Assembly (NCBI GenBank): GCA_039933875.1
Contig: JBDTNF010000005.1
Location: 2,373-66,372 of the forward strand
Length of the DNA: 64,000 nucleotides
Direction of reading: 5' to 3'
From: Flavobacteriales bacterium
Lineage (GTDB): Bacteria > Bacteroidota > Bacteroidia > Flavobacteriales_F > PHOS-HE28
Both the position numbers and the translations under genes were made by a program. The notes under the pieces were generated by a model. The model was given only the letters and a program-made list of their open reading frames with translations. It searched no databases and was not told the origin of the DNA. Shown here in pieces: positions 14,485 through 49,545 of this stretch. Numbering within the stretch: the first letter of the stretch is position 1; the number at the start of each line of letters is the position of its first letter.

Positions 14485-15417
14485 CTAGAAGTAGCGGGGT
14501 GAGATGGTACGACCCTTCACGAAACGGAGGTCGTAGTTCAACATGATCTCGTGCGTACCCGCGTTGTAGGCGCCCATCTGGGTGGTCGTCAGATCGAACG
14601 CATAGCCGATGCGGAACTGGTCGTTCACCTGGTACTGCCCAAGCAGACCGAACGCGTTACCCAACCTGTACATGGCGCCCAACCAGATGCGATCGCGCAA
14701 CAGGAAATTGGCGTTCAGGTCCAGTGACAAGGGCGCACCCTCCACCACACGCAACATCATCGAAGGTTTGAATTTCAAGTGACGGTCCAGGTCCATCACA
14801 TAGCCCCCCATGAGGTAATAGTGCCGCACTTCCGTCGCGGTCACGAGGCCGTCCACGTTGGCGGCGTCGATGTCGTTCTCGAGCAACTTCGGAACACTCA
14901 CCCCGGCGTAGTAGCGCGGCCCTTGCCAGAACATGCCAAAGCCGAAGTTGGGGAGCACGGTGCCCTTGATGTTCACGCTCGCATTGTCAGGGTCGACACT
15001 CGTGAGGGTGGCCAGATCGGCTTGGTACAGATTGATCCCGCCTTTCAGGCCGAAGGCGAGGCGCGTATCCCTGCCGGTCCGGATGCGATAGGCATAGTCA
15101 GCGTATGCCGAGGTCTGCCGCGTCGGGCCGATCTTGTCGGTGAGCACCGAAAGGCCGAGGGCCATGTGCTCATTGGGCAATGGGGAATGGGCCAACAAGG
15201 TCTGCGTGGAGGGCGCACCTTCGAAGCCTACCCACTGGTGGCGGCTCAACGCCATCACTGTGAACACGTTCGCGCCGCCCGCATAAGCCGGGTTGAAGGC
15301 GAGCGTATTGAACATGTACTGGCTGTAGATCGGATCCTGTTGCGCCGAGCAGGTGAGCGTAACGAAGGCCAATGCCACCGAGCAGACAGAACGTGTGATA
15401 TGCCGACGCATCCTCAT
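14485..15417 (-). CDS. PorP/SprF family type IX secretion system membrane protein
   Basis: ORF trimmed to the Met at 15417. A signal peptide is followed by QQDPIYSQYMFNTLAFNPAYAGG, the hallmark SprF N-terminus. Its ATG overlaps the stop of the upstream giant gene (ATGA at 15414-15417). Confidence 0.9.
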   Translation of the reverse strand: MRMRRHITRSVCSVALAFVTLTCSAQQDPIYSQYMFNTLAFNPAYAGGANVFTVMALSRHQWVGFEGAPSTQTLLAHSPLPNEHMALGLSVLTDKIGPTRQTSAYADYAYRIRTGRDTRLAFGLKGGINLYQADLATLTSVDPDNASVNIKGTVLPNFGFGMFWQGPRYYAGVSVPKLLENDIDAANVDGLVTATEVRHYYLMGGYVMDLDRHLKFKPSMMLRVVEGAPLSLDLNANFLLRDRIWLGAMYRLGNAFGLLGQYQVNDQFRIGYAFDLTTTQMGAYNAGTHEIMLNYDLRFVKGRTISPRYF

Positions 15418-24005: not shown

Positions 24006-24012
24006 GTCAAGA

Positions 24013-24035
24013 AAAGCCCCGCCGGGCGGGGCTTT
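24013..24035 (-). terminator. intrinsic terminator after the middle PorP/SprF gene
   Basis: The 10-bp GC-rich stem is aaagccccgc/gcggggcttt. On the minus strand it is followed by TTTTCTT. Confidence 0.65.
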
Positions 24036-24145
24036 ATCGACCATGGCGCGAAAACGATCGACGGAAATTCCTGAATGCACCGGATCAAGCTGCGCACTCC
24101 ATTCAGACAGCCCTTTTGCGGGAACGGTTGCCTACAGGAACCGCC

Positions 24146-25073: not shown

Positions 25074-28000
25074 TCAGCGGATCACAGTGAGTGGCCCCGT
25101 GTACGCATCGGGGAAGCGTGGATCATTGAGCTTCACGACGTAGTAGTACGTGCCTACCGGGACGAAACCGTCATTGTAACGTCCGTCCCATGGCTGTTTG
25201 TAGCCTACACTTTGGAACAACAACTCACCCCAGCGATTGTAGACCTCCACCTCGCACAAGGGGAACAGGTCGATGTAGTCGATCACCCATACGTCGTTCC
25301 ATCCATCGCCATTGGGGGTGAACCCTGATGGGATGACCACTTCGGGGATCACCGTCACCAGCACCGAGTCGAGGTCCTGGCATCCGTTGGGTGCGGTCAC
25401 CAGCACCGTGAACCAGGTGGTCACCGATGGGTGCCCGAGCGGATTGGACACGGCACCACTGGTAAGCGCACTATCCGGGGTCCAGAGGAAGGTGCTGCCT
25501 GTAGGTCCTGTAGGTGTCCCGCCCAGCGTAACAGGCTCGCCCAATACGATGGCGTGATCGGGTCCGGCATCCGCGATCGGCAGATCGAGCACCGTGATGC
25601 TGACCTGGTCGCTGGAACTACATGGGCCATTGGTGACGGTAAGCGTGAAGGTGTGCGGTCCGGAGCTGAGTGGACCGAGCGATACCGTGGTATCCGTGCC
25701 GATCACTGCACTCTGATCATCCGTCCACGTGTAGGTCAAAGCCCCGACGCTCTGCGAGCCATCCAGCAGAATGGCCACGTTGAAGCAAACGCTTTGGTCA
25801 GGCCCAGCGTCAGCCACCACCGTGATCAAGGCGTCGACAGTGACCACCACGGTGTCGGTACAGTTGTGGCTGTCCGTCACGATGAGGGTGTAGTCTCCTG
25901 GGAGAAGTCCTGCAAGGTCCTCAAGCGCTGAATTGAACCCACCAGGGCCGGCCCATCCGAACACGTAAGGCGGTGTTCCACCGGTCGCCGTTGTTCCGAT
26001 GGAACCATCCGCAGCATCCGCGCATGTGGCCGGTGTCACCTGATCAACGGTGATCGACACCGCCGATGGTTCGGTGATCGTGAAAGTGAACGTGCTGTCG
26101 CAACCGATCACATCGCTGATGGTCACGTCATGATCACCGGGGCACAAGCCTGTGGCTGTTGCCGTGCCTTGCCCGTTCGGGGGCACTGGATTCCAGAGGT
26201 AGATGTATCCGCCTAACCCGCCGGTTGCCGCAAGCACGATACTGCCGTTGCAGTCACCATTGCATTGTACATCGCTTACGGTCGCGTTCGCCAGGATCGG
26301 ATCGAAAGGCAGGATGGTGAACGCATAGGTCGAATCACAGCCCAGCGCATCGGTGATCGTCAAGCTCCATGCACCGGCGCACAATCCCGATGCGAGCGTG
26401 GAGCCCTGTCCGACAGGCGGAGGCGGTTGCCACAACACCGTATACGGACCGGTGCCACCACTCGGTGCGATGCTCGCGGTCCCATCGCATGGCCCGAAGC
26501 ATGTTTCGTTCGTGGTCGTCAGGTTCGCCACGATCGGCGTCCCTTCGGTGATGGTGAACGGCGTGGAGAACAGACATCCGTTCGCATCGTTGACCTCGAA
26601 TGTGTAGTCGCCCGCACAAAGACCACCGATCGAATCCACACCAGCGGCGATCGTGTTGCCGCCGGCATCACGCCATACCGTGCTGTAAGGTGCGACCCCT
26701 CCTGTGATCACAGCCTCCGCGGTACCCAGGCAATCGCCGAAACAGATATTGTTCGTTGTGGTCACTGTTGCATCAAGCACAGGCGGATCCACCAGCGTGA
26801 TCGTGATCGTTGTATCACATCCGTTCGCATCGCTTACGGTAACGAGCCAATCATCAGCACAGAGACCCGTACCCGTATCGGTGCCATTGCCGTTCGGCGG
26901 TACCGGGGACCAGTTGAACACATAAGGCGCAACACCACCCTGTGGGATCACCACGATGACACCATCACAAGCACCGTTGCAGGTGATCGGTGTCACAGTT
27001 GCATCCGCTATCAACAACGGCGGCTCGGTGATCAGGACATCCACGGTGATCGAACAACCGACCGAATCGGAGATGACAACGGTCCAAACACCAGCGCACA
27101 ATCCCTGCGCTTGCGGCGTGCCCTGACCGATCGGTGGCACCGGATCCCACACGTAACCATATGGAGGGACACCGCCTGTGGGCCCAACGGTGGCTGAACC
27201 ATCGCAAGCGCCGTTGCAGGTCACCGGTGTGGTGCTCAAGTTGGGCAGGATGGGATCAGGCTCGTCCACATAAGCAGTGTCGATCGTGATGCAGCCTGTG
27301 CCGTTGATCACTTGCACCAGGTAAAGGCCTGCGCAAAGACTGTCGAGTTGGTTACCCGTTCCGTTCAAGCTGTTCCCACTGGCATCGTACCAGGAAATAG
27401 TGCATGGCGGATCCCCGCAGTTGAACACCACGTTCACCACGCCATCACAATCACCGGGACATGTGGTGAGACCATCGGTCGTAGTGGTCACTTCACCATC
27501 GATGTCGCTCACCGGAACAAGCAGCGTTGCCTGGCAGAGGTTCGCATCGGTCACCAGCACGGTGTAGAACCCAGCACAGATATTCGCCAGCGTGTCGTTC
27601 GTTCCGAACAGGTTCCCGCCGGATGTCCATGCGAAGAGGTAGGGCCCTGTTCCGCCAGAGACCATCACGTTCACCGCACCGCTGCACACACCGCACGCAC
27701 TGGGCGAGGTGTTCCCCACCAGCGAGATCGGCAGCGGCTCCATGATGGTGTACGCTACGGTCGTATCACACCCATTGGCATCCGTCAGGAGCAAGCTGTA
27801 GGCACCCGCGCAGAGATCGGTCGCGCTGTTGCCACCCTGGCCGTTCGGTGGCACCGGTGTCCAGAAGAAGAGAAATGGCCCCGTGCCGCCCGAGGGGGTC
27901 ACAACGATGCTACCATCACAGGTGCCCGCGCACGATGCGTTCTGCACGAGCGCGCTCTGCACGAGCGGTGCAGGCTCAACGATGAGCAACGCAATGGTCG

Positions 28001-31000
28001 TGTCGCAACCGAGCGAATCGGCGATGGTCACTGTGTAGATACCCGCGCAAAGACCTTGCGCTTGCGGCGTACCCTGTCCGATCGGAGGAGGAGGATCCCA
28101 TACGTACGTGTACGGGGTCACACCACCTGTCGGACCAACCGTCGCGGTCCCATCACACGCACCTGAACAACCCACCGGCGTGGTGCTCAGGTTCGGGGTG
28201 ATGATCTGCGAAGGCAGTACCGATGCATTGGCGATGCTCACACAACCGCTGCCGTTCGTCACCTGCACCGTATAGGTGCCCGTACAGAGATCGGTCAGCG
28301 TAAGCGTGTTCACAGAGATCACGTTGCCCAGCACATCCGTCCAGATCGTGCTGCACGTCGGCGAGGTGCACGTGAAACTCACACTCACGGTCCCATCGCA
28401 GTCGCTCGCGCAACTGGTTTGGCCATCCGTGATGGTGAGCACCTCAGCGTTGCTGTCGCTCAGCGGAACGATGATCGTCACCGAACAACCGTTCACATCA
28501 GAAACCGTGAGCGAGTAGAGTCCACCGCAGAGGCCTGTGGCATCCTGATCGCTGCTCACTTCCACACCACCGACGACCCAACTGAAGAGGAAGGGTCCTG
28601 TGCCACCCGTTACCACAGCGGACGCGGTTCCATCGCAATTCGGGCAGGTCGTTGGCGTGGTGTTCGCGCTCACTTGCAACACCGCTGGTTCCGTGATAGT
28701 GTACGTGTCGGTCACGCTGCAACCGTTCGCGTCGGTGACCGTCGCGGTCCAGTCCCCGGCACAGAGGCCGAAGGCCGCACTCACGCCTTGTCCGTTGGGC
28801 GGTATGGGGGCCCAGAAGAACGTGTATGGGGCGACACCACCGAACGGCGCGAGCGTGATGTTACCGTCACATTGTCCCTCGCAGGAAACATCGATCACCG
28901 TCGCTGTGACATCGAGCGGCAGGGGTTCTGTGATGAGCACCGAGGCGGTCGTGTCACAACCACCCGCATCACTTACAGTAACCGTATACACACCAGCGCA
29001 CAAGCCCGTCGCTAAAGGCGTGCCCTGCCCGCCGCCAGGAGGAGGATCCCACACGATGACGTATGGTGCGATACCGCCACTGATGCCCACCGCTGCCGTT
29101 CCATCGCAGGCACCCGCGCATGTCACCGGCGAACTGCTGATCAGAAGCACCGTGGGTGCTGGAGCGATAACCGTTGCGGTGTCGAGCGCAAGACAACCGG
29201 AAGCGTTCGTGACACCGACGAAATAGATGCCAGGGCACAATCCGGAGAGCGATGTACCGCTCTGCCCAAGATCGTTACCGGCACTGTCGTACCAAGCCAC
29301 AACACAGGAAGGATCACCGCATGTGAAATTCACACTCACCGCGCCATCGCAGGTGTTCGGACACGACGTGTTACCATCCACCGTGGTGAGCACTTCCCCG
29401 TTCGAATCCGTGATGGGCACTGCCTGTTGCGCGCTACAGCCGTTCGCGTCGGTCACTGTAACGGTATAGATGCCTGCGCAGAGATCGGTGACGTTCTCAG
29501 TAGTCCCTACGGTCGTGCCACTTGCGTTCGTCCACACCACATCGTAGGGCGACACGCCTCCAGTGATCACCGCTGTGGCCGTGCCGATGCACACCTGGCA
29601 TTGGCTGGGCGTGTTCTGCGTGACCAACGTGAGCAACGGCGGTTCGATGACCGTATAGCTGAACGGTGCGCTACATCCGTTCGCATCGGTGATGACCACA
29701 TCCCAAGTTCCCACGCACAGGTTCAACGCGCTGTTGGTGCCCTGTCCGTTCGGCGGCACCGGGGTCCAGACAATGAGATAGGGTGCGGTACCACCGGAAG
29801 GGTTCAGCACGATGCTACCGGTGCATTGTCCGGCGCACGCGACATTGATAACAGCTGGATCGTCGAGGATCGGCGTCGGCTCGGTGATGAGAATATCCTG
29901 CGTGATGCTGCAGCCCGTCGCGTCGGTGATCGTCACCGAGATCACACCTGTACAAAGACCTGTCGCTTGCGGGGTGCCCTGCCCGATCGGTGCGGGTGAC
30001 CATACGTATGTGTATGGAGCCACGCCCCCGGTCGGACCGACCGTAGCCGTACCATCGCATACACCCGCGCAACTCGCTGGTGTACTGCTGCTGTTGGCGA
30101 TGATCGCGGAGAACGGCGCGACGGTGAACGCCATCGTGGTGTCGCACGCATTGCCATCGGTCAACGTCACGGTATAGTTCGTACCAGCACAAAGTCCGGT
30201 GGCTGTATTGGTGCCCTGCCCACCGCCGGGAGGTGGTTGCCAGTCGATCACGATCGGGCCGCTACCACCAGCAGGTGTCAACGTGGCGCTTCCCGAGCAG
30301 GCGCCTAGGCAAGTCTCCGATGTGACGACCAATCCCGGTTGGATGGGCGGTGGTGTGGTGATGGCGAACGCGATCGAGGTATCGCAACCGGCCGCGTCGG
30401 TGACAAGCACCTGCCAGTTACCAATGCACAATCCACTCACCGCGCTGGTGCCTTGTCCGATCGGCGGTGTAGGGATCCACAGGAAGGTGAACGGAGGAAT
30501 GCCCCCCGTAGGTGACACGGAAGCCGAGCCACCACACTCGTTGGCGCACGGTCCGTTCAGCGCGACAAGCCCCGCGTCGATGGGCTGCTCAGGAAGAATA
30601 GTGAAGACGACCGTTGTATCGCATCCACCAGGATCCGTGATCAGCAGCGACCATATGCCCGGGCACAAGCCGGTGGCCGTGGGCAATCCCTGTCCGCTTG
30701 GGGGCACAGGTGTCCATAGATACAGGTATGGCGCCTGGCCCCCGGTCGGTGCCACCGACGCGGTGCCATCGCACGGACCATTACAACTCTCGTTCGTGGA
30801 GACGGCGTTCGGGATGATCGGTGTGGGTGAGGTGATGTCGAACACCATCACCGTGTCGCACGCGGCACCATCACTGATCACCACCGTCCATGTTCCGGGG
30901 CACAAGCCCGAAACACTTGGTGTCCCCTGTCCCACCGGAGGGCTCGGCGACCAGGTGTAGATGTAAGGTGGAAGCCCGCCGCCCGTGGAAAGGATGATGG

Positions 31001-34000
31001 TGCCATCACAAACGTCCGCGCACGACGCGTTCGTCACGGTGGGTACCGCAACGATGCCCGACGGTGTGTTCACCGTGAACAGGATCGTGGTGTCGCAACC
31101 CAGCGCATCGGTGAGCGTGAGCGTGTAAGCGCCCGGGCACAATGCGGAAGCCCCCGGTGTGCCCTGTCCGACGACCACACCCGGTCCCCAGAGGAAGTCA
31201 TACGGACCCGTTCCACCCGACGGCGTGGCGGTCGCAGTGCCATCACACAAACCACCGCAACTCGCAGGAGTGATCACGATCACAGCACTCAATGGGACCG
31301 GCGCATTGATGACGAACGCGAGCGTGGTATCACAACCCGCGACGTCGGTAACGGTCAAGGTGTAGTTCCCTGGACACAGGCCGCTCACACTTGGGGTACC
31401 CTGTCCAACAGGCGGCGCTGGAGACCAACTGTAATCGTATGGTGCCGCGCCACCCGTCACGACCACCGTCGCCGTGCCGTCGCAATCGCCAGCACAGTTC
31501 GGATCGGTAGTGACCAGCGCAGCATCGATGGGCGGTGGTTCCTGAATGGTGTAGGTAAGCGTGGTATCGCATGCACCCGAGGTGATGGTGACCTCCCAAT
31601 CGCCCGTGCACAACGCGGAGATGCTTCCCGTGCCCTGCCCCACAGGGGGCGCAGGTGCCCATAGATAGGTGAACGCCCCGTTGCCACCGGACACAGTGAG
31701 GACGATGCTGCCATCGCAATCACCATTGCACGTCGCATCGGTCACCACCGCGGTCACCGTGATCGGTGGCGGTGCTGGAACGGTGAACGCGATGGTCGTG
31801 TCGCAACCCACCGCATCCGTGATCGTGACGGTGTAGGCCTGTGGGCACAAACCTGTCACGTTGGGGGTTCCCTGTCCAGTGCCGGGAGCAGGTAACCAGT
31901 TGTAACCATATGGAGAAGTCCCCCCGGAAACGATCACACCGGCGGAGCCATCGCACACGCCCGGACAGCTCGCGGGAAGCACCTGCAAGGAGACCAGGAT
32001 CGGAGCCGGGCTTGTGATGGTGAACGGCACAGTCAGCGTGCATCCGTTCGCATCCGTGATCAACACACTGTACGCACCCGCGCACAACCCACTGATGTTA
32101 GGTGTGCCCTGGCCGGCAGGTGGTGCGGGGGTCCATACGTAGGTGTAGGGCATTGTCCCTCCGCTCACCAAAACGGAAGCCGTGCCATCGCACAGCGTAC
32201 CGCAGGTCACATTGGTCTGCGTCGGCGTCGCGATCAACGGCGGTGGCTCGCTGATCGTGAACGTCACGGTGGTATCGCAGCCGTTCGCATCGGTGATGGT
32301 CAGGCTGTAGTTCCCAGCGCACAAGCCGGTCACAGTATCCGTTCCTTGACCGACCGCCGGAGCAGGTGTCCAAACGAAACCGAACGGACCCACCCCACCG
32401 GTGACCGTGACCGTCGCGGTACCATCGCATGCACCAGCGCAGGTCACATCCGTCGTGGTCAATGTTGGATCGATCGGTGGCGGAGCACTGACCGTGAACG
32501 TCACAGTGGTATCGCAGCCACCAGCATCGGTCACGGTTACCGACCAATCGCCGGGGCACAAGCCGCTCACATTGCCCGTGCCCTGGCCCACGGGTGGCAC
32601 TGGGCTCCAGAGGAAAACGTATGGTGCCTGACCTCCGGACACGCTCAGCCCGATCGTTCCATCGCACACATCAGCACATGTCGCGTCGGTCACGGTTCCT
32701 TGTACGATGATCGCACCCGGAGAAATGATCGTCACACTCACCAGCGTATCGCAACCGGAGGTCTGATCGGTGATCAGCACCGTGTACGCACCGGCACAAA
32801 GCCCCGTGACACTTCCCGTGCCCTGCCCCGTTCCAGGCGCCGGTGCCCATACATACGTGTATGGTCCGGGCGCACCGGCGGGGAGAACGTTGGCAGTACC
32901 ATCGCATGCGCCGAAGCAACTAGCGTTGGTGAACGTCAGGTTGGGTAGTATCGGCGGTGGTGCAGTGATCGCGAACACCACCGTGGTGTCGCACCCATTG
33001 AAGTCGGTCACCGTCACACTGTAGTTGCCGGGACACAATCCGCTCGCGTTGTTCGTGCCCTGGCCGATGGGTGGTGGCGGCGTCCATACCACGGAATAGG
33101 TCGGCGTGCCGCCGCTTGGGACAACGCTGGCGGTCCCATCGCACTGCCCGAAACAGTTCGCGTTGGTGATCGTCAGGTTCGGCGATACCGGCAGCAGGTT
33201 GAAGAAGAAGGCGGTGTCGAAGGTGCACAGGTTAAAATCGGTGATGTGCAACGTGTTGTTGCCTGCGCACAGCGCGAAGAACGAGGAACCGGTTCCCGCG
33301 CCGTTGTTCCAACTGTAACTGTAAGGTGATACACCACCAACAGCGAGCGCGGTGCGCGAGCCATTGCAGACGTCAGCGCACGTGGGTGGTGTTCCCTGCC
33401 CGAAGAAGATCACGCCGAGCGGAGCCGGTTCGGTGACGTTCACCTGCACCGGGCACGAAATGCCCTGGGTGACGTCCGTGACGATCACGATCTGCGGTCC
33501 ACCGCAGGCCGCGGTCCAGGTCTGCGTTGGCGGCCCTCCGAAGAGCCAGGAGTAAGAGAAGGTCCCACTGCCTCCCGTGACGTTCACCGTCACCGTGCCA
33601 TTGCAATTGCCGCGGCAACGCACACCGTACCCGTTGAAATTGCTGACCAGCGTCGCGGTCACCACGAACGGTGTCTGTCCGGGACCTGTACCACAGACGT
33701 TCACGTCGCGGTCATCGATCGCAGGCGCATCACCGTTCCACGTCACGGGCGCACCACCCACCGAAAGGGTCGCACCGGTCGGGTCAACGATCGGGTTCAG
33801 TGCTCCCAGCGCGGGCGGCATATCGAGCATCACCACGGAACGACCTCCGATCAATCGCTTCGCACCATGTCCTTCGGTGCGCAGCGCATGCGCCTTCAAC
33901 AAATTCCCGTTCGTGATCAGCGTGCCCTCGCGCATCACCACATCACCCTGTTCCATCACCATATCGCTGAGCGCGCTCCAGCTACCACTTCCGTCCAGGA

Positions 34001-34430
34001 CCAACGAACCGCCCAAGGGTCGTCCGCATAGATCCACTTCCACCCCTTCGCGCCGCACCACCAAGCGTGTGGCACCGGCGAACGGCCATGTCACGTCCCC
34101 CACCAGGCGCCAATCGCCTGCTATGGTCAACTCTGCATTGGCTGGCCCGGTGATGCTCACCGCACCATTGGCTCCGTTCACCAGCAGACCCTTACAACGC
34201 GCGGCACCTTGTATATCAATGGAGGCACTGGCCGAAGGAGCGATCACCACGATCTCGTCCGCGCGCGGTGCACCCGCCCCACCGGGCCCGGTGGGGGTAA
34301 GGCTCCAATGCGCCCCGTCGCTCCATGCGCCTTGACCACCCGTCCAGTACTTCGTTTGCGCTAGCGCCACCGTGCACAGGCCCGCGAGGAGCATTGCCAG
34401 GGTGGTCTTGAGCGTGGCGTTGGTCAGCAT
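25074..34430 (-). CDS. giant SprB-repeat adhesin-like T9SS type B cargo protein (~3118 aa)
   Basis: ORF 25074..34502 was trimmed to the Met at 34430 (MLTNATLKTTLAMLLAGLCTVALAQ). About 33 SprB-type repeats are present (C...CDG......GG..PY...W.P.P.GQGT...GLC.G.Y.V.V.D..GC). The C-terminal FTPNGDGWNDVW...VYNRWG...GTYYYVV is the type B sorting domain. Confidence 0.92.
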   Translation of the reverse strand: MLTNATLKTTLAMLLAGLCTVALAQTKYWTGGQGAWSDGAHWSLTPTGPGGAGAPRADEIVVIAPSASASIDIQGAARCKGLLVNGANGAVSITGPANAELTIAGDWRLVGDVTWPFAGATRLVVRREGVEVDLCGRPLGGSLVLDGSGSWSALSDMVMEQGDVVMREGTLITNGNLLKAHALRTEGHGAKRLIGGRSVVMLDMPPALGALNPIVDPTGATLSVGGAPVTWNGDAPAIDDRDVNVCGTGPGQTPFVVTATLVSNFNGYGVRCRGNCNGTVTVNVTGGSGTFSYSWLFGGPPTQTWTAACGGPQIVIVTDVTQGISCPVQVNVTEPAPLGVIFFGQGTPPTCADVCNGSRTALAVGGVSPYSYSWNNGAGTGSSFFALCAGNNTLHITDFNLCTFDTAFFFNLLPVSPNLTITNANCFGQCDGTASVVPSGGTPTYSVVWTPPPPIGQGTNNASGLCPGNYSVTVTDFNGCDTTVVFAITAPPPILPNLTFTNASCFGACDGTANVLPAGAPGPYTYVWAPAPGTGQGTGSVTGLCAGAYTVLITDQTSGCDTLVSVTIISPGAIIVQGTVTDATCADVCDGTIGLSVSGGQAPYVFLWSPVPPVGQGTGNVSGLCPGDWSVTVTDAGGCDTTVTFTVSAPPPIDPTLTTTDVTCAGACDGTATVTVTGGVGPFGFVWTPAPAVGQGTDTVTGLCAGNYSLTITDANGCDTTVTFTISEPPPLIATPTQTNVTCGTLCDGTASVLVSGGTMPYTYVWTPAPPAGQGTPNISGLCAGAYSVLITDANGCTLTVPFTITSPAPILVSLQVLPASCPGVCDGSAGVIVSGGTSPYGYNWLPAPGTGQGTPNVTGLCPQAYTVTITDAVGCDTTIAFTVPAPPPITVTAVVTDATCNGDCDGSIVLTVSGGNGAFTYLWAPAPPVGQGTGSISALCTGDWEVTITSGACDTTLTYTIQEPPPIDAALVTTDPNCAGDCDGTATVVVTGGAAPYDYSWSPAPPVGQGTPSVSGLCPGNYTLTVTDVAGCDTTLAFVINAPVPLSAVIVITPASCGGLCDGTATATPSGGTGPYDFLWGPGVVVGQGTPGASALCPGAYTLTLTDALGCDTTILFTVNTPSGIVAVPTVTNASCADVCDGTIILSTGGGLPPYIYTWSPSPPVGQGTPSVSGLCPGTWTVVISDGAACDTVMVFDITSPTPIIPNAVSTNESCNGPCDGTASVAPTGGQAPYLYLWTPVPPSGQGLPTATGLCPGIWSLLITDPGGCDTTVVFTILPEQPIDAGLVALNGPCANECGGSASVSPTGGIPPFTFLWIPTPPIGQGTSAVSGLCIGNWQVLVTDAAGCDTSIAFAITTPPPIQPGLVVTSETCLGACSGSATLTPAGGSGPIVIDWQPPPGGGQGTNTATGLCAGTNYTVTLTDGNACDTTMAFTVAPFSAIIANSSSTPASCAGVCDGTATVGPTGGVAPYTYVWSPAPIGQGTPQATGLCTGVISVTITDATGCSITQDILITEPTPILDDPAVINVACAGQCTGSIVLNPSGGTAPYLIVWTPVPPNGQGTNSALNLCVGTWDVVITDANGCSAPFSYTVIEPPLLTLVTQNTPSQCQVCIGTATAVITGGVSPYDVVWTNASGTTVGTTENVTDLCAGIYTVTVTDANGCSAQQAVPITDSNGEVLTTVDGNTSCPNTCDGAVSVNFTCGDPSCVVAWYDSAGNDLGQSGTSLSGLCPGIYFVGVTNASGCLALDTATVIAPAPTVLLISSSPVTCAGACDGTAAVGISGGIAPYVIVWDPPPGGGQGTPLATGLCAGVYTVTVSDAGGCDTTASVLITEPLPLDVTATVIDVSCEGQCDGNITLAPFGGVAPYTFFWAPIPPNGQGVSAAFGLCAGDWTATVTDANGCSVTDTYTITEPAVLQVSANTTPTTCPNCDGTASAVVTGGTGPFLFSWVVGGVEVSSDQDATGLCGGLYSLTVSDVNGCSVTIIVPLSDSNAEVLTITDGQTSCASDCDGTVSVSFTCTSPTCSTIWTDVLGNVISVNTLTLTDLCTGTYTVQVTNGSGCVSIANASVLPSQIITPNLSTTPVGCSGACDGTATVGPTGGVTPYTYVWDPPPPIGQGTPQAQGLCAGIYTVTIADSLGCDTTIALLIVEPAPLVQSALVQNASCAGTCDGSIVVTPSGGTGPFLFFWTPVPPNGQGGNSATDLCAGAYSLLLTDANGCDTTVAYTIMEPLPISLVGNTSPSACGVCSGAVNVMVSGGTGPYLFAWTSGGNLFGTNDTLANICAGFYTVLVTDANLCQATLLVPVSDIDGEVTTTTDGLTTCPGDCDGVVNVVFNCGDPPCTISWYDASGNSLNGTGNQLDSLCAGLYLVQVINGTGCITIDTAYVDEPDPILPNLSTTPVTCNGACDGSATVGPTGGVPPYGYVWDPVPPIGQGTPQAQGLCAGVWTVVISDSVGCSITVDVLITEPPLLIADATVTPITCNGACDGVIVVIPQGGVAPYVFNWSPVPPNGNGTDTGTGLCADDWLVTVSDANGCDTTITITLVDPPVLDATVTTTNNICFGDCLGTAEAVITGGVAPYSTVWRDAGGNTIAAGVDSIGGLCAGDYTFEVNDANGCLFSTPFTITEGTPIVANLTTTNETCFGPCDGTASIAPSGGTGPYTVLWQPPPPVGQGSTLASGLCAGAWSLTITDALGCDSTYAFTILPFDPILANATVSDVQCNGDCNGSIVLAATGGLGGYIYLWNPVPPNGQGTATATGLCPGDHDVTISDVIGCDSTFTFTITEPSAVSITVDQVTPATCADAADGSIGTTATGGTPPYVFGWAGPGGFNSALEDLAGLLPGDYTLIVTDSHNCTDTVVVTVDALITVVADAGPDQSVCFNVAILLDGSQSVGALTYTWTDDQSAVIGTDTTVSLGPLSSGPHTFTLTVTNGPCSSSDQVSITVLDLPIADAGPDHAIVLGEPVTLGGTPTGPTGSTFLWTPDSALTSGAVSNPLGHPSVTTWFTVLVTAPNGCQDLDSVLVTVIPEVVIPSGFTPNGDGWNDVWVIDYIDLFPLCEVEVYNRWGELLFQSVGYKQPWDGRYNDGFVPVGTYYYVVKLNDPRFPDAYTGPLTVIR
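25835..33650 (-). repeat. in-frame coding tandem repeat, ~33 SprB-type units of ~77 aa, with a 4-unit super-repeat at about 26700..30110
   Basis: The units were enumerated from the translation. The boundaries are approximate and were derived from amino-acid indices. Confidence 0.85.
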
Positions 34431-34447
34431 CCTGTTGTGCTCGTGGT

Positions 34448-35389
34448 CTAATCGAAAGCCGGGCAATTGATGGCACGCCTGCCCACGCTCTCCCTGGCGC
34501 ATGGGGTGATGGCGAGGACGATCTCGTGTGTGTTGGAACTGGCCACCCGCAACTTCGAGGTGGTCACATCATAGCTGTAACCGACTTGGAAGAATTTCAT
34601 GAAGCCGATCTTCATCAGGATCGTGAGGGCATCGCCGTTGCGGTATCCCACACCCAGGGCCAATGTGCGATTGTACTCCACCATGCAATTGAGATCCGCC
34701 GCCATGGGCGCACCACCGGCGAACTTGATCAGGGCGCTGGGGATGAGGGCGGTCTTCTTGGCAAGGCGGTACTTGTATCCACCGGTGAGCATCAAATGGC
34801 GGGAGAGGTGCGAATCGACACCGATGTCCTTGTACTTGTTGCCCACCAGTTGATGCAGGGACAATCCTGCCCACATCGTCTTGCTGTAGAGCCAGATCCC
34901 CGGGGTGATCTCCGGGAACAGCATCACGGTCGCCTTTCCGGCCAAGGCTGGATCATTGAAATCCGTGGCGATCACATCACCCACGTTGAACTTCACCTGC
35001 TCGAGCCCGGCGAACGTCCCCAGGGAGAGGAAATAGTCGCGCGACATCTGGATGTGGTAGGCGTAGGCGAGCAGGAAACGCGTGTAGCCCCAGTTGCCCG
35101 CGTTGTCCGACTCCGCGAACACACCGATGCCGTGCTTGTTCGCCTGGAAGGGCTTTCCCTTTTGCCGGATCGTGCCATGCAAGCTGATCCAGCCGGTGGT
35201 TGGGGCTCCGTCGAAACCCGTCCATTGCTGGCGATAGCCCAGGCGCAGGTCTATGCAATCCTTGCTACCCGCCACACCGGGGTTCACACTGAACATGTTG
35301 AACACGTACTGCGTGTATTGCGATAGCTGCTGCGCTTGCGTCGACATCGCGATCGCGGCCAACCAGGCGGTGAGGATCCATCTTCTCAT
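34448..35389 (-). CDS. PorP/SprF family type IX secretion system membrane protein
   Basis: ORF trimmed to the Met at 35389 (MRRWILTAWLAAIAMSTQAQQLSQYTQYVFNMFSVNPGVAGS). It makes an ATGA overlap with the upstream cargo gene at 35386-35389. Confidence 0.9.
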   Translation of the reverse strand: MRRWILTAWLAAIAMSTQAQQLSQYTQYVFNMFSVNPGVAGSKDCIDLRLGYRQQWTGFDGAPTTGWISLHGTIRQKGKPFQANKHGIGVFAESDNAGNWGYTRFLLAYAYHIQMSRDYFLSLGTFAGLEQVKFNVGDVIATDFNDPALAGKATVMLFPEITPGIWLYSKTMWAGLSLHQLVGNKYKDIGVDSHLSRHLMLTGGYKYRLAKKTALIPSALIKFAGGAPMAADLNCMVEYNRTLALGVGYRNGDALTILMKIGFMKFFQVGYSYDVTTSKLRVASSNTHEIVLAITPCARESVGRRAINCPAFD

Positions 35390-36378
35390 CGGATGATGGA
35401 GATGAAACCTGTGTAAGGGGTGGACTGACCTTCGACCTGGTTCAACTGGATGTAGTAGTAGTAAGTACCCTCCGTCACCTTGTGGCCGTTGTTGGTGCCA
35501 TCCCATGGTTCGCGGTAGCCATTGCTGCGGAACACGCGCTGCCCCCACCGGTCATAGATCAACACCTCCGAGCCAGGATAATCGACGATACCAGGAACAT
35601 CCCACGTGTCATTGATCCCATCGTCGTTCGGGCTGAACGTGTTCGTGGGCTGGATCAACAAGATCACTTCCACGGTCACATCATCGCTGAACGCGCACCC
35701 GTTGATCTGCGTGGTGACCGTATAGGTGGTGCTGGAGACCGGTTGCGCGATCGGGTCGGGTATGCCGTTCCCGCTAAGACCCGAGGTAGGTGACCAGTCG
35801 TAGTTCGTTCCGCCGATGGCGTTCAGTTGGGTGCTCGCCCCCTCGGAGATCTCCACGTCCGGACCTGCATCGAAATCAACACCCACGATATCGGCACCGG
35901 CGCCCCCGATCTCGATCTGGAAACCGCACTGTGCCGCGATCGTCGAGCCGTTATCCTGCGCCCCGGCAACGATGATCCAATACTGTGTATTGGGCGCCAA
36001 TGCGAGCGTATTGAAGCTGAACGACTCGGAGTCCTGCACGCATGGTGAAACCGAGGCGAACGAGCCCGGCAGGCAACTACCATCGCCGCTCAGCACCACC
36101 ACGCTCAACTCGTTGTCCATGCCGGCGATCAACGGGCAATTGATGGAGGTGAGCTGGACATTCACCTGGCCACCCACGCTGTTGGTAGTGAAGGTGTACC
36201 ACACCAAATTGGCCGTGGATGCGCAAAAGCCGGGCAGGCCTACCGCACCGGTATTGTCCCCGCCCGCCTGTTGTTCCGCGCAAAGCGTGGCCGCCGTGGA
36301 GCAGTCGCTGTTCGGTGGTTGCGCCCAGGAAACCGTTGCTGTGAGGGGGAAGAGGGCGAGGAACGCGGTGAGGCGCAT
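35386..36378 (-). CDS. T9SS type B (gliding motility-associated C-terminal domain) cargo protein, 330 aa
   Basis: ORF trimmed to the Met at 36378 (MRLTAFLALFPLTATVSWAQ). A Cys-containing N-terminal beta domain is followed by an Ig-like segment. The C-terminal is FSPNDDGINDTW...IYDRWG...GTYYYYI. Confidence 0.88.
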   Translation of the reverse strand: MRLTAFLALFPLTATVSWAQPPNSDCSTAATLCAEQQAGGDNTGAVGLPGFCASTANLVWYTFTTNSVGGQVNVQLTSINCPLIAGMDNELSVVVLSGDGSCLPGSFASVSPCVQDSESFSFNTLALAPNTQYWIIVAGAQDNGSTIAAQCGFQIEIGGAGADIVGVDFDAGPDVEISEGASTQLNAIGGTNYDWSPTSGLSGNGIPDPIAQPVSSTTYTVTTQINGCAFSDDVTVEVILLIQPTNTFSPNDDGINDTWDVPGIVDYPGSEVLIYDRWGQRVFRSNGYREPWDGTNNGHKVTEGTYYYYIQLNQVEGQSTPYTGFISIIR

Positions 36379-36507
36379 GGTACGTGTGAACGGGCGCGCG
36401 CGCGTATGCACGCACGGCCACGCCGAAGGTAGAGGGGGCGTTTCCCGCGCCCGGTCGCGAAGAGCGGGCATTTTCACACACCATACTGTTAAGCCCGTGC
36501 GCCAGGG

Positions 36508-38025: not shown

Positions 38026-38057
38026 GCAGGGACTCGACCCGACGACTCAACAACGAC

Positions 38058-38089
38058 AACGCCCCCGGTGCGGCGGCACCAGGGGCGTT
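38058..38089. terminator. possible bidirectional terminator hairpin between convergent genes
   Basis: The imperfect 14-bp stem is aacgcccccggtgc / gcaccaggggcgtt with one mismatch. It lies between the stop at 38025 (+) and the stop at 38109 (-). Confidence 0.45.
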
Positions 38090-38108
38090 AGCCAATTGTA
38101 GCGTGTGC

Positions 38109-38726
38109 TTACGCAGCGGCCATCAGCAACAAGGGTTCGCAGAGGCTGGTTTCGCCGGCAGCACCGATCGCTGTTACAGCGAACCAGTACATGGTGCGCG
38201 GTTCCAGGCTGTCGGCATTGAAACGGCTTTTCGTGGTGGCCCCGATCAACTCCCATTTGAACGGGTTGTTGCTCGTGCTCATGAAGACATGGTGCAGGTC
38301 AGCACCTTCTTCACGATCCCAACGGAACGAGGCGCGCCCCGTCTTGTTGGAGAACAGTGACACGAGTTTCGTGGGCGGGTTCAGGGCACCGATGGGCGCG
38401 GGCTTTTTGCGCACTTCGAAGCCGCTGCTGAGGATGGTATCCTCATCGCCGCTAGAAGCCATTTGTACATACCCAGCCCATTCCTTCAGCGCCGCACGCA
38501 GGGCCTTGTCGGCCTCGCGCCTCGCCTGGTGTTCCACCTTTCCCCCGTTCTTGTCCACACCGGCATTGGCCGCCACCAATGCATCGATGAGCCCTTGCAA
38601 CGCCGCCGGGGTGGGCACTGCGTTCGGGAATTTCGCATTGCCCACCATGCTGTCGTGGATGCCCTGCGCCTTCGCTACCAATCCCGTAGCTGGGAGGGTG
38701 TCTACACCCATTTTTACAGTTGCCAT
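38109..38726 (-). CDS. hypothetical protein with helical N-terminal half and fibronectin type III-like C-terminal domain
   Basis: The product is 205 aa with no signal peptide. The C-terminal PPTKLVSLFSNKTGRASFRWDREEGADLHHVF...YWFAVTAIGAAGES reads like an FN3 fold. Function is unknown. Confidence 0.65.
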   Translation of the reverse strand: MATVKMGVDTLPATGLVAKAQGIHDSMVGNAKFPNAVPTPAALQGLIDALVAANAGVDKNGGKVEHQARREADKALRAALKEWAGYVQMASSGDEDTILSSGFEVRKKPAPIGALNPPTKLVSLFSNKTGRASFRWDREEGADLHHVFMSTSNNPFKWELIGATTKSRFNADSLEPRTMYWFAVTAIGAAGETSLCEPLLLMAAA

Positions 38727-38905
38727 GTGGCGTTTGGTTTTATGGCGGGGTAAGCCGCCTGGTTAATGTGGGCCTTGTACCTGTGGGGGCGAACAAGGTG
38801 GCGGTGCACCCCTCAGGATTTTCCCTAGGGGTTGGCACACCCCTCCCGGCTCGCGCACCGGCCAAGCATAGGCAGGCGGCTCCGCTGCACAACCGACCGT
38901 GTTAG

Positions 38906-39240
38906 TGGAACCACATTCCTGAATTGTGGGAACACTTTGCCCGCAACCTGTTCCACATTACAGGATCGTGGAAACACATTGCGCGCTCAGGGGATCACTT
39001 TGCCGAAATGTGGAAACACATTCCGCCCACATGGATACACATTCTTGTATCGTGGAAACAGGTTCCGCTCACATGGATGCACATCGCCGAATTGTGGGAA
39101 CACATTCGGCGCATCCGGAACCACTTTCCTGAATTGTTGAACCACATGGTGCCCACATGGAACCACATGGATGCATTGTGGAACCACATGCCGCGCACCT
39201 TGTTCCACTGTTCCGGAAAGTGGAACAACATTTCCCGACA
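38906..39240. repeat. 16 x 21-bp phased tandem repeat array (core TGGAAMCACAT)
   Basis: Unit starts were read directly at 38906, 38927, 38949, 38969, 38990, then every 21 bp to 39221. All six frames are open across the array. Confidence 0.9.
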
Positions 39241-39353
39241 ATCTGTCTGGCCGATGGGCGCAGGGGCTCATATGCCAGGGCCTGCTCACAAGTCCGCCGC
39301 TAGCGGCAGGTCAATGGCTTGTGGCCCGTTCTAGACACCGCGCTAGAAATGGC

Positions 39354-39653
39354 TCATTGCTCCTTGCCCCTCTGACACACGCACCGCACCAAACCGAATT
39401 GCACGGCCTTGCCAAGTACCTCGATGGTGCTGCCAACCCCAAGCTTGTCGTACACTTTGGCGCGGTGTGTCTCGACGGCCTTGGGGCGTAGGTCCATGTG
39501 CTCGGCCATTTCGGCCACGGTGGGCTCGGGGCAGCGGCATACCAGCACAATGTATTCGCACTCGCGCGCCGTAAGCCGGTAGCGCTCCAGAAGTGTTGCG
39601 AGGAGTGCGGGATCCACGCCCACAAACATTTGCGGCGGCATGCGCGCACACAA
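39354..39653 (-). CDS. stand-alone LuxR/GerE-type helix-turn-helix transcriptional regulator
   Basis: LTARECEYIVLVCRCPEPTVAEMAEHMDLRPKAVETHRAKVYDKLGV fits the LuxR C-terminal HTH pattern (LT.RE.E.L......S..EIA..L.IS..TV..H...I..KLGV). No receiver or ligand domain is present. The start could instead be the Met at 39629. Two other frames are also open here. Confidence 0.6.
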   Translation of the reverse strand: MCARMPPQMFVGVDPALLATLLERYRLTARECEYIVLVCRCPEPTVAEMAEHMDLRPKAVETHRAKVYDKLGVGSTIEVLGKAVQFGLVRCVCQRGKEQ

Positions 39654-39800
39654 TACCCGGAAGCCGGTAATTGTTGGGGTGTGTAACCTTGGTTCTCTAC
39701 CGGATACAGGGTAGGTGGCCGCTGGTCTAGGCTTTGACGGGGCAGAGGTTGTGCTTCCATTGGCGCAGTGGCCACACAGTAGGTATCAGGCAAAAACCAG

Positions 39801-39818
39801 AGGAGGTCGCAACCTCCT
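39801..39818 (-). terminator. intrinsic terminator next to displaced tRNA-Arg 3' fragment
   Basis: The hairpin is aggaggt-cgca-acctcct. On the minus strand it is followed by CTGGTTTTTG. Confidence 0.6.
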
Positions 39819-39824
39819 CATCTT

Positions 39825-40882: not shown

Positions 40883-41095
40883 ATGTCCCTCTTTCAGCGT
40901 TCGGTCCTTGAGAAATACCTGAGGCAGCAGGATGGCACGGGGATAGCCAAAGACTACGAAGCCTTCAAGACGCATTTCCACGACCTGGTAATACAGGATT
41001 GTAAGGAGAAGATGATGGACTTGCCGAAGCGGGTGACGACGGTGAGCGTGAGGACGATGGAGGTGGTGAGGGGGATGGAGGGAATTGTCAGATAG
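40883..41095 (+). pseudogene. internally deleted remnant of a type IIG restriction-modification enzyme (N-terminal ~43 aa fused to C-terminal ~25 aa)
   Basis: MSLFQRSVLEKYLRQQD...AKDYEAFKTHFHDLVIQ matches my memory of the N-terminus of Eco57I-like type IIG enzymes. KEKMMDLPKRVTTVSVRTMEVV matches their extreme C-terminus. Only 70 aa remain. Confidence 0.6.
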
Positions 41096-41106: not shown

Positions 41107-41841
41107 ATGAACCTCCTCGGTTGGTGCTTCGTTTTCAAATTGATGGATTGGCTTGGGGCTATCCTCCTTTGTGTTTTTGCGGGATTAGTAATCGTGACCG
41201 TGCAGTACTTCTCTTCGCCAGCCAAGAGGAACACCTTGGCCGTCATCAGTGCAACTAAGGCCGTACGTAAGAATTGGCGGATTGCGCGCCCCACAGGGAC
41301 AGAAGAGGTTACTTCGGAAACGGGAAGGGAACAATCAATTCGAAATCACAATCGCTTCGCACTCGCGGTCTTTGTTGAGCGTATGATGAGGGCTTTCGGC
41401 ACTGAGGGCGAAATCACTGCGGCAACCTATCAAGGGCTCCCAGTCTATCCCTGCCTTGCGTGGATCAAGAATGACACAAGTGAAAGGCCTGAAGATCGAT
41501 GGCAGGGCTTCGCGGAGTGGACCAGACACCTAACAGATACAATTGAGCAGTACATTTTCCTCCGGCACTTCGGCCTGGGTTTGAGTGGTACCTACCGTAG
41601 GTCGGTTGCCCTGAACACTCTTCTCGTTCACATCGAGCAGGTGGTCAAAGTGCACGATGCTCTAGCGGCAGACAGCGCTTCAGCGGCATGCCTTCAGTAC
41701 TTGCCAAGTCACAACCATCCAAGCGAGTACTTCACTATCACCACGTTGGCTGGGCTTGTTCCATCGGAGGTTGAAGAGTTGATGACAGCCATGTCTGCTC
41801 TCAAGCAGGCATGGTACGATTGGGAATGCTTGACCCGATGA
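41107..41841 (+). CDS. hypothetical membrane-anchored protein (244 aa), no recognisable family
   Basis: Hydrophobic N-terminal helices (LLGWCFVFKLMDWLGAILLCVFAGLVIVTV) precede a soluble C-terminal part. GC is visibly lower than in flanking core genes. It sits between two RM gene fragments. Confidence 0.6.
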   Translation: MNLLGWCFVFKLMDWLGAILLCVFAGLVIVTVQYFSSPAKRNTLAVISATKAVRKNWRIARPTGTEEVTSETGREQSIRNHNRFALAVFVERMMRAFGTEGEITAATYQGLPVYPCLAWIKNDTSERPEDRWQGFAEWTRHLTDTIEQYIFLRHFGLGLSGTYRRSVALNTLLVHIEQVVKVHDALAADSASAACLQYLPSHNHPSEYFTITTLAGLVPSEVEELMTAMSALKQAWYDWECLTR

Positions 41842-41987
41842 GCGTTGTTTCCATCCCACTCGGCAACCGCACCGCCCTGGAATGGGTGCTGGACCAGTAC
41901 AAGGAGAAAACGCCGATGGACCCGACGATCCGGGAGAAGTTCAACACCTACCGCTTCGCGCGTCCTGAACGTGTAGGGCACCAATGA
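41838..41987 (+). pseudogene. fragment of a type IIG/ISP restriction-modification enzyme C-terminal region
   Basis: The hand translation is MSVVSIPLGNRTALEWVLDQYKEKTPMDPTIREKFNTYRFA.... In intact enzymes, as I recall them, this segment lies just upstream of the ...RVTTVSVxTMxIV tail. Confidence 0.55.
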
Positions 41988-48281: not shown

Positions 48282-49298
48282 ATGAGCCGGGTCACACCAT
48301 GCCAACGAAGGAACAGTCGAGCGAATATGGAACGACCATCTGAACGCACACTCAAGGAGCATCACGCCTATTACAGCGCTGATGGGCCATTCGCGGCGAA
48401 CGCGCGGATGTTACAGGGGGTGTGGGCGCGCGCGCAGGGGTTACCACTCGCTGAACGTGCGTTCAAGAACGGCATGCGAAAGTTGGCCCCGCTGTGCAAC
48501 TACGTGGATCCTGAACACGCCCTGCATCAGGGTAGCAATTTTCTAACCGAGGGTATCCGGTGTGTCGTTCGCGAGGAGATGAAGGCGAACGCTGCGCGCA
48601 AAGGACCCGCGCGCAAGGTGTTCCGTGCGGATCGGTTGTACGGTGACCTGCTCAACAGCCAGTCGTTGGCGTTCAACCTCTTCGGCGAGTTGAAGTTGGA
48701 TCTGGAAATGGCCACGCGGGTCTTCAGGTATATGCGCCCCGATCACGTGGATACAGTGATCGGGCTGGAGTTCGAGCATGCCCCACGCCTTGGGGTTGCG
48801 CGTAGTAACGGTGACCGTTCCACGTTTGCCGTGTTCGTCGAATACCTGGGCCCGCGTGGGCGAGGGTTCATCGGCATGGAGGTGAAATACGCGGAGAGCT
48901 TGTCGAGCAAACCGGTTCTCTTCCGGGAACGCTACTGGGAGTTGGCAGAGGCTTCAGGGCAGTTCAGACCTGGTTCTTTGGAAACGTTAAGAACAATGCC
49001 CTTGGGGGTTGAGCAACTGTGGCGCGCGCATCTGTTGTGCCTGGAACTAGGTCCACCTGTGGGTACGACCTACGCCGCAGGATGCTTCATGTTCCTCTAT
49101 CCGCAGGACAATTTCGATTGCCAGATCGCGGTGAACCGCTACCAGAAAATGCTCTCTGGGTCCGACAGCTTCCTTCCGTTCACCATGGAAGAGTATTGCT
49201 GGGCGCTGCGCTCCGTCAAGGCAGGTGACTGGGTGGATGAACTCGTAGGCCGCTACTTATCGTTCTCCCGGAATCTAGTCCCTGTTATCATACGTTGA
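48282..49298 (+). CDS. PD-(D/E)xK nuclease-like hypothetical protein (possible orphan restriction endonuclease)
   Basis: The candidate motif is D (NGDRSTFAVFVEY) ... E-V-K (GFIGMEVKYAE), preceded by SQSLAFNLFGEL. The start could instead be the Met at 48327. Confidence 0.55.
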   Translation: MSRVTPCQRRNSRANMERPSERTLKEHHAYYSADGPFAANARMLQGVWARAQGLPLAERAFKNGMRKLAPLCNYVDPEHALHQGSNFLTEGIRCVVREEMKANAARKGPARKVFRADRLYGDLLNSQSLAFNLFGELKLDLEMATRVFRYMRPDHVDTVIGLEFEHAPRLGVARSNGDRSTFAVFVEYLGPRGRGFIGMEVKYAESLSSKPVLFRERYWELAEASGQFRPGSLETLRTMPLGVEQLWRAHLLCLELGPPVGTTYAAGCFMFLYPQDNFDCQIAVNRYQKMLSGSDSFLPFTMEEYCWALRSVKAGDWVDELVGRYLSFSRNLVPVIIR

Positions 49299-49473: not shown

Positions 49474-49545
49474 TGACCCCACCAGGAGTCGAACCTGGAT
49501 CAAGAGTTTAGGAAACTCCTATTCTATCCATTGAACTATGGGGCC
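49474..49545 (-). tRNA. tRNA-Arg (anticodon CCU), CCA not encoded
   Basis: A manual cloverleaf fold gives acceptor GGCCCCA/TGGGGTC, D arm GTTC..GAAT, anticodon arm GGAGT-TTCCTAA-ACTCT and T arm CCAGG-TTCGACT-CCTGG. Total length is 72 nt. Confidence 0.9.

Follow-up and report, generated by a model that had tools for sequence, protein, structure and literature searches.

A phased array of sixteen 21-bp repeats beside an FN3-domain gene of a Flavobacteriales bacterium: a probable docking track for a regulator protein

The locus discussed here raises the question of what a long run of short, evenly spaced repeats does between two small genes of a Flavobacteriales bacterium. The repeats lie in a 64,000-nucleotide stretch of contig JBDTNF010000005.1 (GenBank assembly GCA_039933875.1, positions 2,373 to 66,372 of the forward strand), referred to below as the window; 16 units of 21 bp with an ATGTGG-AA-CCACAT-like core occupy 38906..39241, between a gene for a GerE-type helix-turn-helix (HTH) protein and a gene for a protein with an FN3 domain. 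Arrays with the same spacing and copy number, and with nearly unrelated sequence, lie upstream of the same FN3 gene family in ~30 Flavobacteriales genomes. A regulator protein probably docks on the array in many copies; the more specific proposal, put forward tentatively from sequence comparison, is that the array may act as a helically phased multi-operator on which a small HTH protein binds cooperatively and controls the neighbouring FN3-domain gene.

The array and its counterparts at related loci

The 21-bp repeat array is a real feature. An earlier note on this DNA, made from the sequence alone, had placed the unit starts correctly: units printed in that register number 16 over 38906-39241, and 13 of the 16 match its core TGGAAMCACAT with 0-2 mismatches. 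A search with TGTGGAAMCACAT at ≤2 mismatches gives 11 matches in the window, nine of them within the array, and none of 100 shuffles reached 11. The 21-bp period given in the note is present, however the stronger period is 42 bp; the array matches itself at 0.65 when shifted by 42 bp, compared with 0.49 for a shift of 21 bp, 0.50 for 63 bp and a background of ~0.25, and a repeat search recovers seven in-register copies at exact 42-bp spacing, so that the array consists of eight 42-bp blocks in which two types of 21-bp unit alternate. The core forms a partial dyad, ATGTGG-AA-CCACAT, and is reversed (TGTTCCACA) in units 3 and 15. Tandem Repeats Finder, which had been suggested as a check, does not report the array because its copies are less than 70% alike.

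Loci with the FN3 gene (numbered with the prefix L) were drawn from a scan of a genome collection (33), from exact-protein look-ups (ten) and from a metagenome scan (one); the related loci examined number ~28 and come from Flavobacteriales metagenome-assembled genomes (MAGs) apart from one Verrucomicrobiae. A periodic array stands upstream of the FN3 gene at essentially every locus with enough upstream DNA, and is kept even where the FN3 homologue is only 30-36% identical. The distance from the array to the start codon is 154-317 bp in all loci but two, the degenerate array of L027 (389 bp) and that of the Verrucomicrobiae locus L033 (~1.2 kb). The base period is 21 bp in ~26 arrays and 22 bp in L031; the L027 array has a period of ~22 bp, with autocorrelation peaks at 44 and 88 bp only. 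Higher-order periods differ by locus, at two, three or four times the base unit, so only the two-turn unit is conserved, and the 42-bp period of the window reflects the history of that one locus. The number of units, which is approximate, has a median of 16.0 and a mean of 16.2 (standard deviation 2.2) over 28 arrays; long-read assemblies give 14-21.5, which shows that collapse of short reads is not the cause of this number.

The sequence of the arrays turns over far more readily. FN3 proteins that are 85-86% identical are preceded by arrays with almost no 8-mers in common. Between L038 (7580-8000) and L039 (1-421) the array differs by 6.1% and the adjacent leader by 7.8%, compared with 0.6% in the gene, and the FN3 protein is identical; in this pair the regulatory region evolves faster than the synonymous sites of the FN3 gene. 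A weak profile common to the arrays is still found, at 6.2 bits against 3.7 ± 0.3 in column-shuffled controls. FN3-gene loci also occur in pairs, with six MAGs contributing two each; both members have arrays in four MAGs (L008/L026, L013/L014, L011/L015, and L006 with L032, where the array is shorter), and the genomic contexts of paired modules differ. The array sequences of L013 and L014, from one MAG, are unrelated, which fits what would be expected of insulated pairs of regulator and site.

Dyad symmetry recurs among these arrays in different letters, and is strong in L031, L014, L029, L028, L008 and L004. L031 (742-1080, 1141-1524), with an FN3 homologue 30% identical, has ~17 units of 22 bp around the perfect palindrome GGGCAC-T-GTGCCC; other dyad cores are GCAACCAGGCCTGGTTGC (L014), GTTGATCAAC (L029) and GTGCGCAC (L028). 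Loop-less perfect palindromes of even length would suit binding by a dimer, not hairpins in RNA. In L033 (3363-3788, 4908-5534), from the Verrucomicrobiae MAG, ~20 near-perfect 21-bp units (CTTCATCGGAGCTTGCCTCGC) lie 1.2 kb before the FN3-family homologue; the association of array and FN3 gene may thus hold across phyla, possibly via transfer.

Candidate binder, putative target gene and the DNA between them

The module is read along the minus strand in the order hairpin (39819..39800), GerE gene, 113 bp, array, 180-bp leader, 205-aa gene and hairpin (38090..38057); both hairpins are terminator-like, and the second, at 38057..38090, has 15 pairs and follows the FN3 gene directly. The earlier note had named both flanking genes, and both assignments hold. 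The HTH gene, at 39354..39653 (minus), encodes a 99-aa protein with a GerE match (PF00196, E 2e-6) and is the candidate for the binder; in its database version (P0105) the protein is 87 aa, which would place the start at ~39617, and the stop codon is 113 bp from the array. The other gene encodes a confident FN3 fold. The only neighbour that recurs, at 11 loci, is a small HTH gene encoded on the same strand, with 24-114 bp between its end and the array: it is of the GerE type in ten (the window, L006, L007, L008, L011, L013, L026, L036, L040 and L044), and is replaced by an XRE/HTH_3-type gene (E 1.5e-10) at L031, the one clear 22-bp array. The HTH family therefore changes where the array type changes, from GerE to XRE at 22 bp. 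A subgroup has an extra conserved open reading frame (ORF) of ~130-170 aa between the GerE gene and the array (L008 3867-4382; L026; L037 898-1055; L044 436-822), which matches no family. A reverse search from the GerE protein returned only two proteins and one short metagenome locus.

The FN3 gene lies at 38109..38726 (minus) and encodes 205 aa, predicted to fold as a domain of three long helices followed by a C-terminal FN3 domain (predicted local distance difference test, pLDDT, 89). Foldseek with this protein returns FN3 domains only; the whole protein has no family in Pfam, NCBIfam, PHROGs or PADLOC, and its N-terminal half has no family match. It belongs to ~100 homologue clusters, all named ones being from Flavobacteriales MAGs, and has no relative in IMG/VR, INPHARED (50,697 phage records) or PLSDB (72,556 plasmids); a profile search against 1.84 billion protein representatives was overwhelmed by giant proteins with many FN3 domains. 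Proteins of the family share a conserved C-terminal tail, ...MAAA or ...ARAA, which we take to resemble ssrA-like C-terminal degradation signals. The FN3 protein was also considered as a sequence-specific binder of the array and is an unlikely one: proteins of 85-86% identity go with arrays that have almost no common 8-mers, and the N-terminal domain consists of long helices with no HTH, consistent with the Foldseek result.

A conserved, structured leader fills most of the 154-317 bp between array and start codon; in the window it covers 38727-38905 (minus), ~180 bp. Hairpin HP1 (38809..38831, minus; CCCCTAGG-GAAAAT-CCTGAGGGG, with an AT-rich loop) is present in most related leaders, and its stem covaries, with five of six pairs changed on both sides and 0 of 500 shuffles reaching the score in a hand alignment of hand-picked 18-mers. 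The best-conserved block in an alignment of 15 leaders is a motif between HP1 and HP2, GGTACAAGGCCCACATTAACC (38761..38781, minus), also written GGTACAAAGGNCCACAAACC. Hairpin HP2 (38744..38759, minus; GGCGG-CTTACC-CCGCC) stands before an A-rich stretch and then the start codon; its stems vary among leaders, as read by eye, with complementarity kept (GGCGG/CCGCC, GGGAC/GTCCC, GCCGG/CCGGC, GCGC/GCGC). In the subgroup L006, L008, L001, L005, L009, L004 and L002 the HP2 loop is complementary to bases immediately ahead of the start codon, and changes on one side are matched on the other (GGATAC/GTATCC, GGACAC/GTGTCC, GGGG/CCCC, GTAGGCC/GGCTTAC), which suggests a pseudoknot between the HP2 loop and the segment preceding the ATG. 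RNAalifold predicts no pairs on a MAFFT alignment of the leaders because that alignment is poor, and the leader matches no Rfam family. The structured leader implies that, in the window-type arrangement, transcription would start shortly after the array. Scans for sigma-70-type and Bacteroidota TAnnTTTG promoters near the FN3 gene found none that is recognisable; a missing canonical Bacteroidota TAnnTTTG promoter is as expected for a factor-dependent promoter.

An AT-rich box accompanies the array. Its form in relatives is TATACCATACTATATAGGG(GAGC), clear in L005 (4843-4860), L006, L008 (4849-4865, minus), L024 (4275-4292), L026, L028 (4369-4384), L038 (7298-7311), L040 and L041 (7355-7373); the window has a weak, degenerate version, CAAGCATAGGCAGGCGGCTCCGC (38863..38885, plus), recognised by eye against the boxes of L008 and L034, ~20 bp from the array and pointing into it. 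The distance from box to array end is 22-110 bp and the box usually points into the array, that of L005 pointing away. L005 and L024 have the 18-mer TATACCATACTATATAGG in identical form, although the FN3 protein of either locus is only ~36-60% identical to that of the window. The box matches no tested promoter consensus, an exact 18-mer scan of IMG/VR gave no match, and an nhmmer model of the box was too weak for use. It lies between array and gene on the opposite strand in L006, L008, L026, L034, L035 and the window (degenerate), and upstream of the array on the gene strand in L024, L028, L038, L040 and L041.

The array itself has been turned around in two lineages. The L040 array (7495-7829) aligns with that of L006 (1958-2292), L008 and L026 at 147 bits inverted versus 38 in the same orientation; the genes are colinear, so that the array runs the other way with respect to the FN3 and GerE genes on either side of it. 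The L041 array is inverted relative to the FN3 gene when compared with L009, L034, L018 and the window. Both inverted arrays keep the usual position, and in each case the box has changed side along with the array, which indicates that the cassette was inverted as a whole; no inverted repeats flanking the cassette were found in the window. A single orientation for all arrays is not assignable from the common profile because the core is partly palindromic, and only inversions supported by BLAST were used. These cases suggest that the array works independently of its orientation relative to the FN3 gene.

Weighing the roles proposed for the repeats

In the operator model each 21-bp unit, equal to two helical turns and often dyad-symmetric, would be one site, and ~16 dimers of a small HTH protein would bind cooperatively in a row along one face of the helix; the candidate binder here is the GerE/LuxR-type protein whose gene ends 113 bp from the array. 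The resulting nucleoprotein filament would be switch-like, would end beside the FN3 promoter and the structured 5′ leader, and would thereby control expression. The geometry of the protein array would hold the period and the unit number, while the sequence would drift fast by concerted evolution together with the binder; this joint drift would keep paralogous modules in one genome from cross-talk. What the comparison establishes is the conserved architecture with its period and unit number, the fast turnover of sequence, the frequent HTH neighbour, the indifference to orientation and the missing coding signal; that a protein binds, which protein it is and which way it regulates are what we infer here. 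Among the three architectures offered in the earlier note, the comparison between loci speaks most for the cooperative multi-site operator, with the neighbouring small HTH protein as its candidate binder, and the iteron and centromere alternatives find no support. Several observations weigh against the operator model. To our knowledge, 16 sites far exceed any described LuxR-type promoter. In the 1-8 kb of upstream DNA available, an HTH gene is missing from about two thirds of the related loci; L006 and L008 have an array in common, yet the recognition helices of their GerE proteins differ; and the dyad is not above chance in the arrays of L005, L024, L025 and L033. The change of 6-8% in array and leader between L038 and L039, against 0.6% in the gene, exceeds that of a simple conserved operator, and if the AT-rich box is a promoter, then the array is transcribed.

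Among the alternatives, the array could encode a heptad-repeat protein of W-x-H-[IMF]-P-E-L units from ORF 38924..39334 (plus). The frame of this ORF is open across the array, as the earlier note had reported of every frame on both strands; that wider statement was wrong, as five of the six frames have one or two stops inside 38906-39240. An open frame on the strand opposite the FN3 gene was seen in all 17 loci first examined, units resembling W[DE]H[FI]PE are common to the window, L041 and L034, and gene callers annotate ORFs over the array. The chance of an open frame per strand in such GC-rich repeats is however ~88%, so the open frames in the first 17 loci carry no weight, and on the strand opposite the FN3 gene, which is that of ORF 38924..39334 in the window, each of the three frames of the 22-bp L031 array is broken by stops every ≤21 codons. 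The variable positions among copies have no 3-base periodicity in any array, and neither does the cross-array profile by codon position (2.22, 2.22 and 1.75 bits); between the homologous frames MSDDMDLFPRN (L006, L044) and MSDNKDKMRGNKAL (L040) there are two synonymous and eight mostly radical changes. The repeat ORF has no family match and no conserved N- or C-terminus, its start in the window being a TTG within the first repeat, and the frame and strand chosen by gene callers differ between loci. As the earlier note had held, the array is non-coding on this comparative evidence; the heptad-protein reading is largely refuted and is barely credible. A practical observation is that gene callers put spurious ORFs over these arrays on either strand. 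A role as a plasmid-type iteron origin, a ParR/SopB-type centromere or a part of oriC is likewise highly improbable. The spacing of 21-22 bp is typical of iterons, an AT-rich box adjoins the array in relatives, and gene orientation changes locally beside a shallow local minimum of cumulative GC skew near 39-40 kb. This minimum, which the note had proposed as a check, exists, however it is not the minimum of the window and is explained by gene orientation. Genes for Rep, ParA, ParM, TubZ, DnaA or DnaN are absent from the window region and are not conserved in the related loci, which extends to any partner nucleoside triphosphatase (NTPase) of the ParM, ParA or TubZ kind for a ParR/SopB/TubR-type protein; array DNA has no match among the 72,556 plasmids of PLSDB, and the module occurs twice in several MAGs, in unrelated contexts. 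The origin and centromere suggestions of the note thus find no support, and the resemblance to a DnaA box is not above chance, with 10 window hits for TTATCCACA at ≤1 mismatch against 8.2 expected and none in the array.

Two other roles deserve more weight than these. The array could be transcribed from the AT-rich box into a repeat RNA of ~350-450 nt that acts on or with the FN3 protein as a scaffold, a sponge or a ToxI/ToxN-like antitoxin. The TATACCATACTATATAGGG(GAGC) box stands 22-110 bp from the array end and points inward at most recognisable loci, its side flips together with the array in L040 and L041, and TATACCATACTATATAGG has stayed identical in L005 and L024 despite distant FN3 proteins; gene callers mostly choose the strand along which the box points, and repeats upstream of a small gene, fast co-evolution and defence or mobile neighbours recall type III toxin-antitoxin (TA) systems. 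The possible promoter role of the box is why this RNA model keeps a place, but it is considered unlikely: a strict 21-22 nt period that survives sequence turnover is explained by the helical phasing of DNA and not by RNA, several cores are loop-less palindromes unable to form hairpins, the box fits no known promoter consensus and in L005 points away, and there is no T-run terminator between array and gene. The FN3 protein has neither a ToxN-like fold nor a PADLOC match, and Rfam has no family in the window at the gathering threshold or at E≤5, and none in 12 related loci. The array could instead have a role independent of its sequence, as a phased spacer or architectural element for a general nucleoid protein, or as a hypervariable contingency or phase-variation repeat that tunes the FN3 gene. 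Period and length are kept and sequence is not, L038 and L039 have diverged ~tenfold more in array and proximal leader than in the gene, two lineages have the cassette the other way round, and inverted units occur inside the window array. This role is nevertheless quite doubtful, given that the arrays still have their weak common profile, that no inverted repeats flank the window cassette and that the loci give no evidence of length variation within populations; intrinsic curvature, as estimated under a wedge model, is not above that of column-shuffled arrays and so shows no sign of being the property that is kept, and the window array is predicted to be straight.

A broader proposal is that array, box, leader and helix-FN3 protein, often with an HTH gene, could form a self-contained and undescribed island module of Flavobacteriales; a 'bacterial satellite' of ~16 two-turn units, constant in length and phase and hypervariable in sequence, would scaffold a filament, as DNA or as a transcript, that sets or senses a tightly controlled and possibly unstable effector. 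This is somewhat unlikely, however if true it would be a new repeat-based regulatory or defence system, beyond an unusually long operator. The family of three-helix and FN3 proteins with an Ala-Ala C-terminus, the leader with covarying hairpins and a possible pseudoknot, and the AT-rich box are absent from Rfam, Pfam, NCBIfam, PHROGs and PADLOC.

Genomic setting and comparison with known systems

The window is Bacteroidota-like chromosomal DNA of 60% G+C with genes of the type IX secretion system (T9SS; PorP/SprF, CHU_C cargo), a two-component system and two tRNAs; the neighbours of the array are the FN3-domain protein, the GerE HTH protein, an EamA transporter and an outer membrane protein barrel. 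G+C is lower from 39 to 49 kb, a stretch that holds a REase-ARP nuclease (48282-49298) and has a tRNA (49474-49545) near its end. Within the same region two short ORFs on the plus strand (40883-41095 and 41811-41987) flank an unrelated 244-aa ORF (41107-41841); the second is a weak Type_ISP_C remnant (E 1e-4, below the Pfam cut-off) and the first presumably resembles the N-terminus of a Type ISP/IIG restriction enzyme, which suggests a disrupted gene. Elsewhere in the window two giant ORFs on the minus strand (15414-24080, 2888 aa, and 25074-34502, 3142 aa) are each followed by a PorP/SprF gene, and a CHU_C-tailed protein (35386-36477) lies near them, together a T9SS cargo cluster; such a cluster also adjoins the FN3 module in L043.

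At related loci the neighbours are often defence genes. The module lies directly upstream of a divergent cas9 in L035 (1-3125) and L042 (2177-7493; cas1 and cas2 follow), where a CRISPR array would lie beyond the cas genes; the repeats of the window are contiguous and without spacers, and are not a CRISPR array, as the earlier note had said. Restriction-modification neighbours are of type I with DUF3800 in L038 and of type III in L040, with a DNA methylase and an rve integrase in L041; prokaryotic STING (L018), HNH nucleases (L024, L028) and a transposase (L020) are also found. This setting suggests that the module may be accessory and travel in defence or variable islands.

Plasmid iterons (P1, F, RK2, R6K, pSC101) are direct repeats of 17-22 bp about two helical turns apart, homogenised within a replicon, adjoining an AT-rich stretch and the gene of their binder, in sets of usually 3-9 units. 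Unlike iterons, the array here comes without a Rep-family gene or DnaA boxes and is chromosomal (the L038 module sits in a 3.9-Mb chromosome), at one or two copies per genome and with no plasmid relatives. Partition centromeres (R1 parC/ParR, pSK41 parC, F sopC with 12 x 43 bp, tubC/TubR) are tandem sites coated by a small dimeric protein in a filament or ring; their repeats lie just upstream of the operon and double as its operator. The 43-bp unit of F sopC, with its internal inverted repeat, is close to the 42-bp super-unit of the window; unlike centromeres, the module has no partition NTPase gene, an FN3-domain partner, and no plasmid or phage relatives. In type III TA systems (toxI/toxN) RNA repeats of 34-45 nt, in 2-6 copies, run co-directionally with the toxin gene and are followed by a terminator. 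The likeness is that of a fast-evolving tandem array directly upstream of a small protein gene, often among defence genes; however the module here has ~16 units of 21-22 bp that can face either way relative to the gene, lacks a T-run terminator and encodes a protein unlike ToxN.

Closest in geometry among known systems are the BvgA promoters of Bordetella (Pfha, Pptx), where a NarL/FixJ regulator combines the HTH family of the candidate binder with the same two-turn spacing. Six head-to-head BvgA dimers bind 22 bp apart on one helical face and abut the -35 element; most sites are individually weak, and occupancy extends cooperatively from an upstream site to the core promoter (PMC7250471). BvgA arrays have 3-6 sites, compared with ~16 here, and BvgA has a receiver domain, whereas the candidate here is an HTH-only protein of 87-99 aa. 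Unlike those of BvgA, the arrays here, to which binding is presumed, are true tandem repeats, homogenised within a locus, unrelated between loci and invertible. No described counterpart was found for this combination of ~16 units, conserved count, sequence turnover, cassette inversion and an uncharacterised partner. If the operator model is correct, this would be the longest natural helically phased operator array described for a bacterial gene, and a natural experiment in the co-evolution of array and binder, in which the period and ~16 units stay constant while the sequence outpaces synonymous change.

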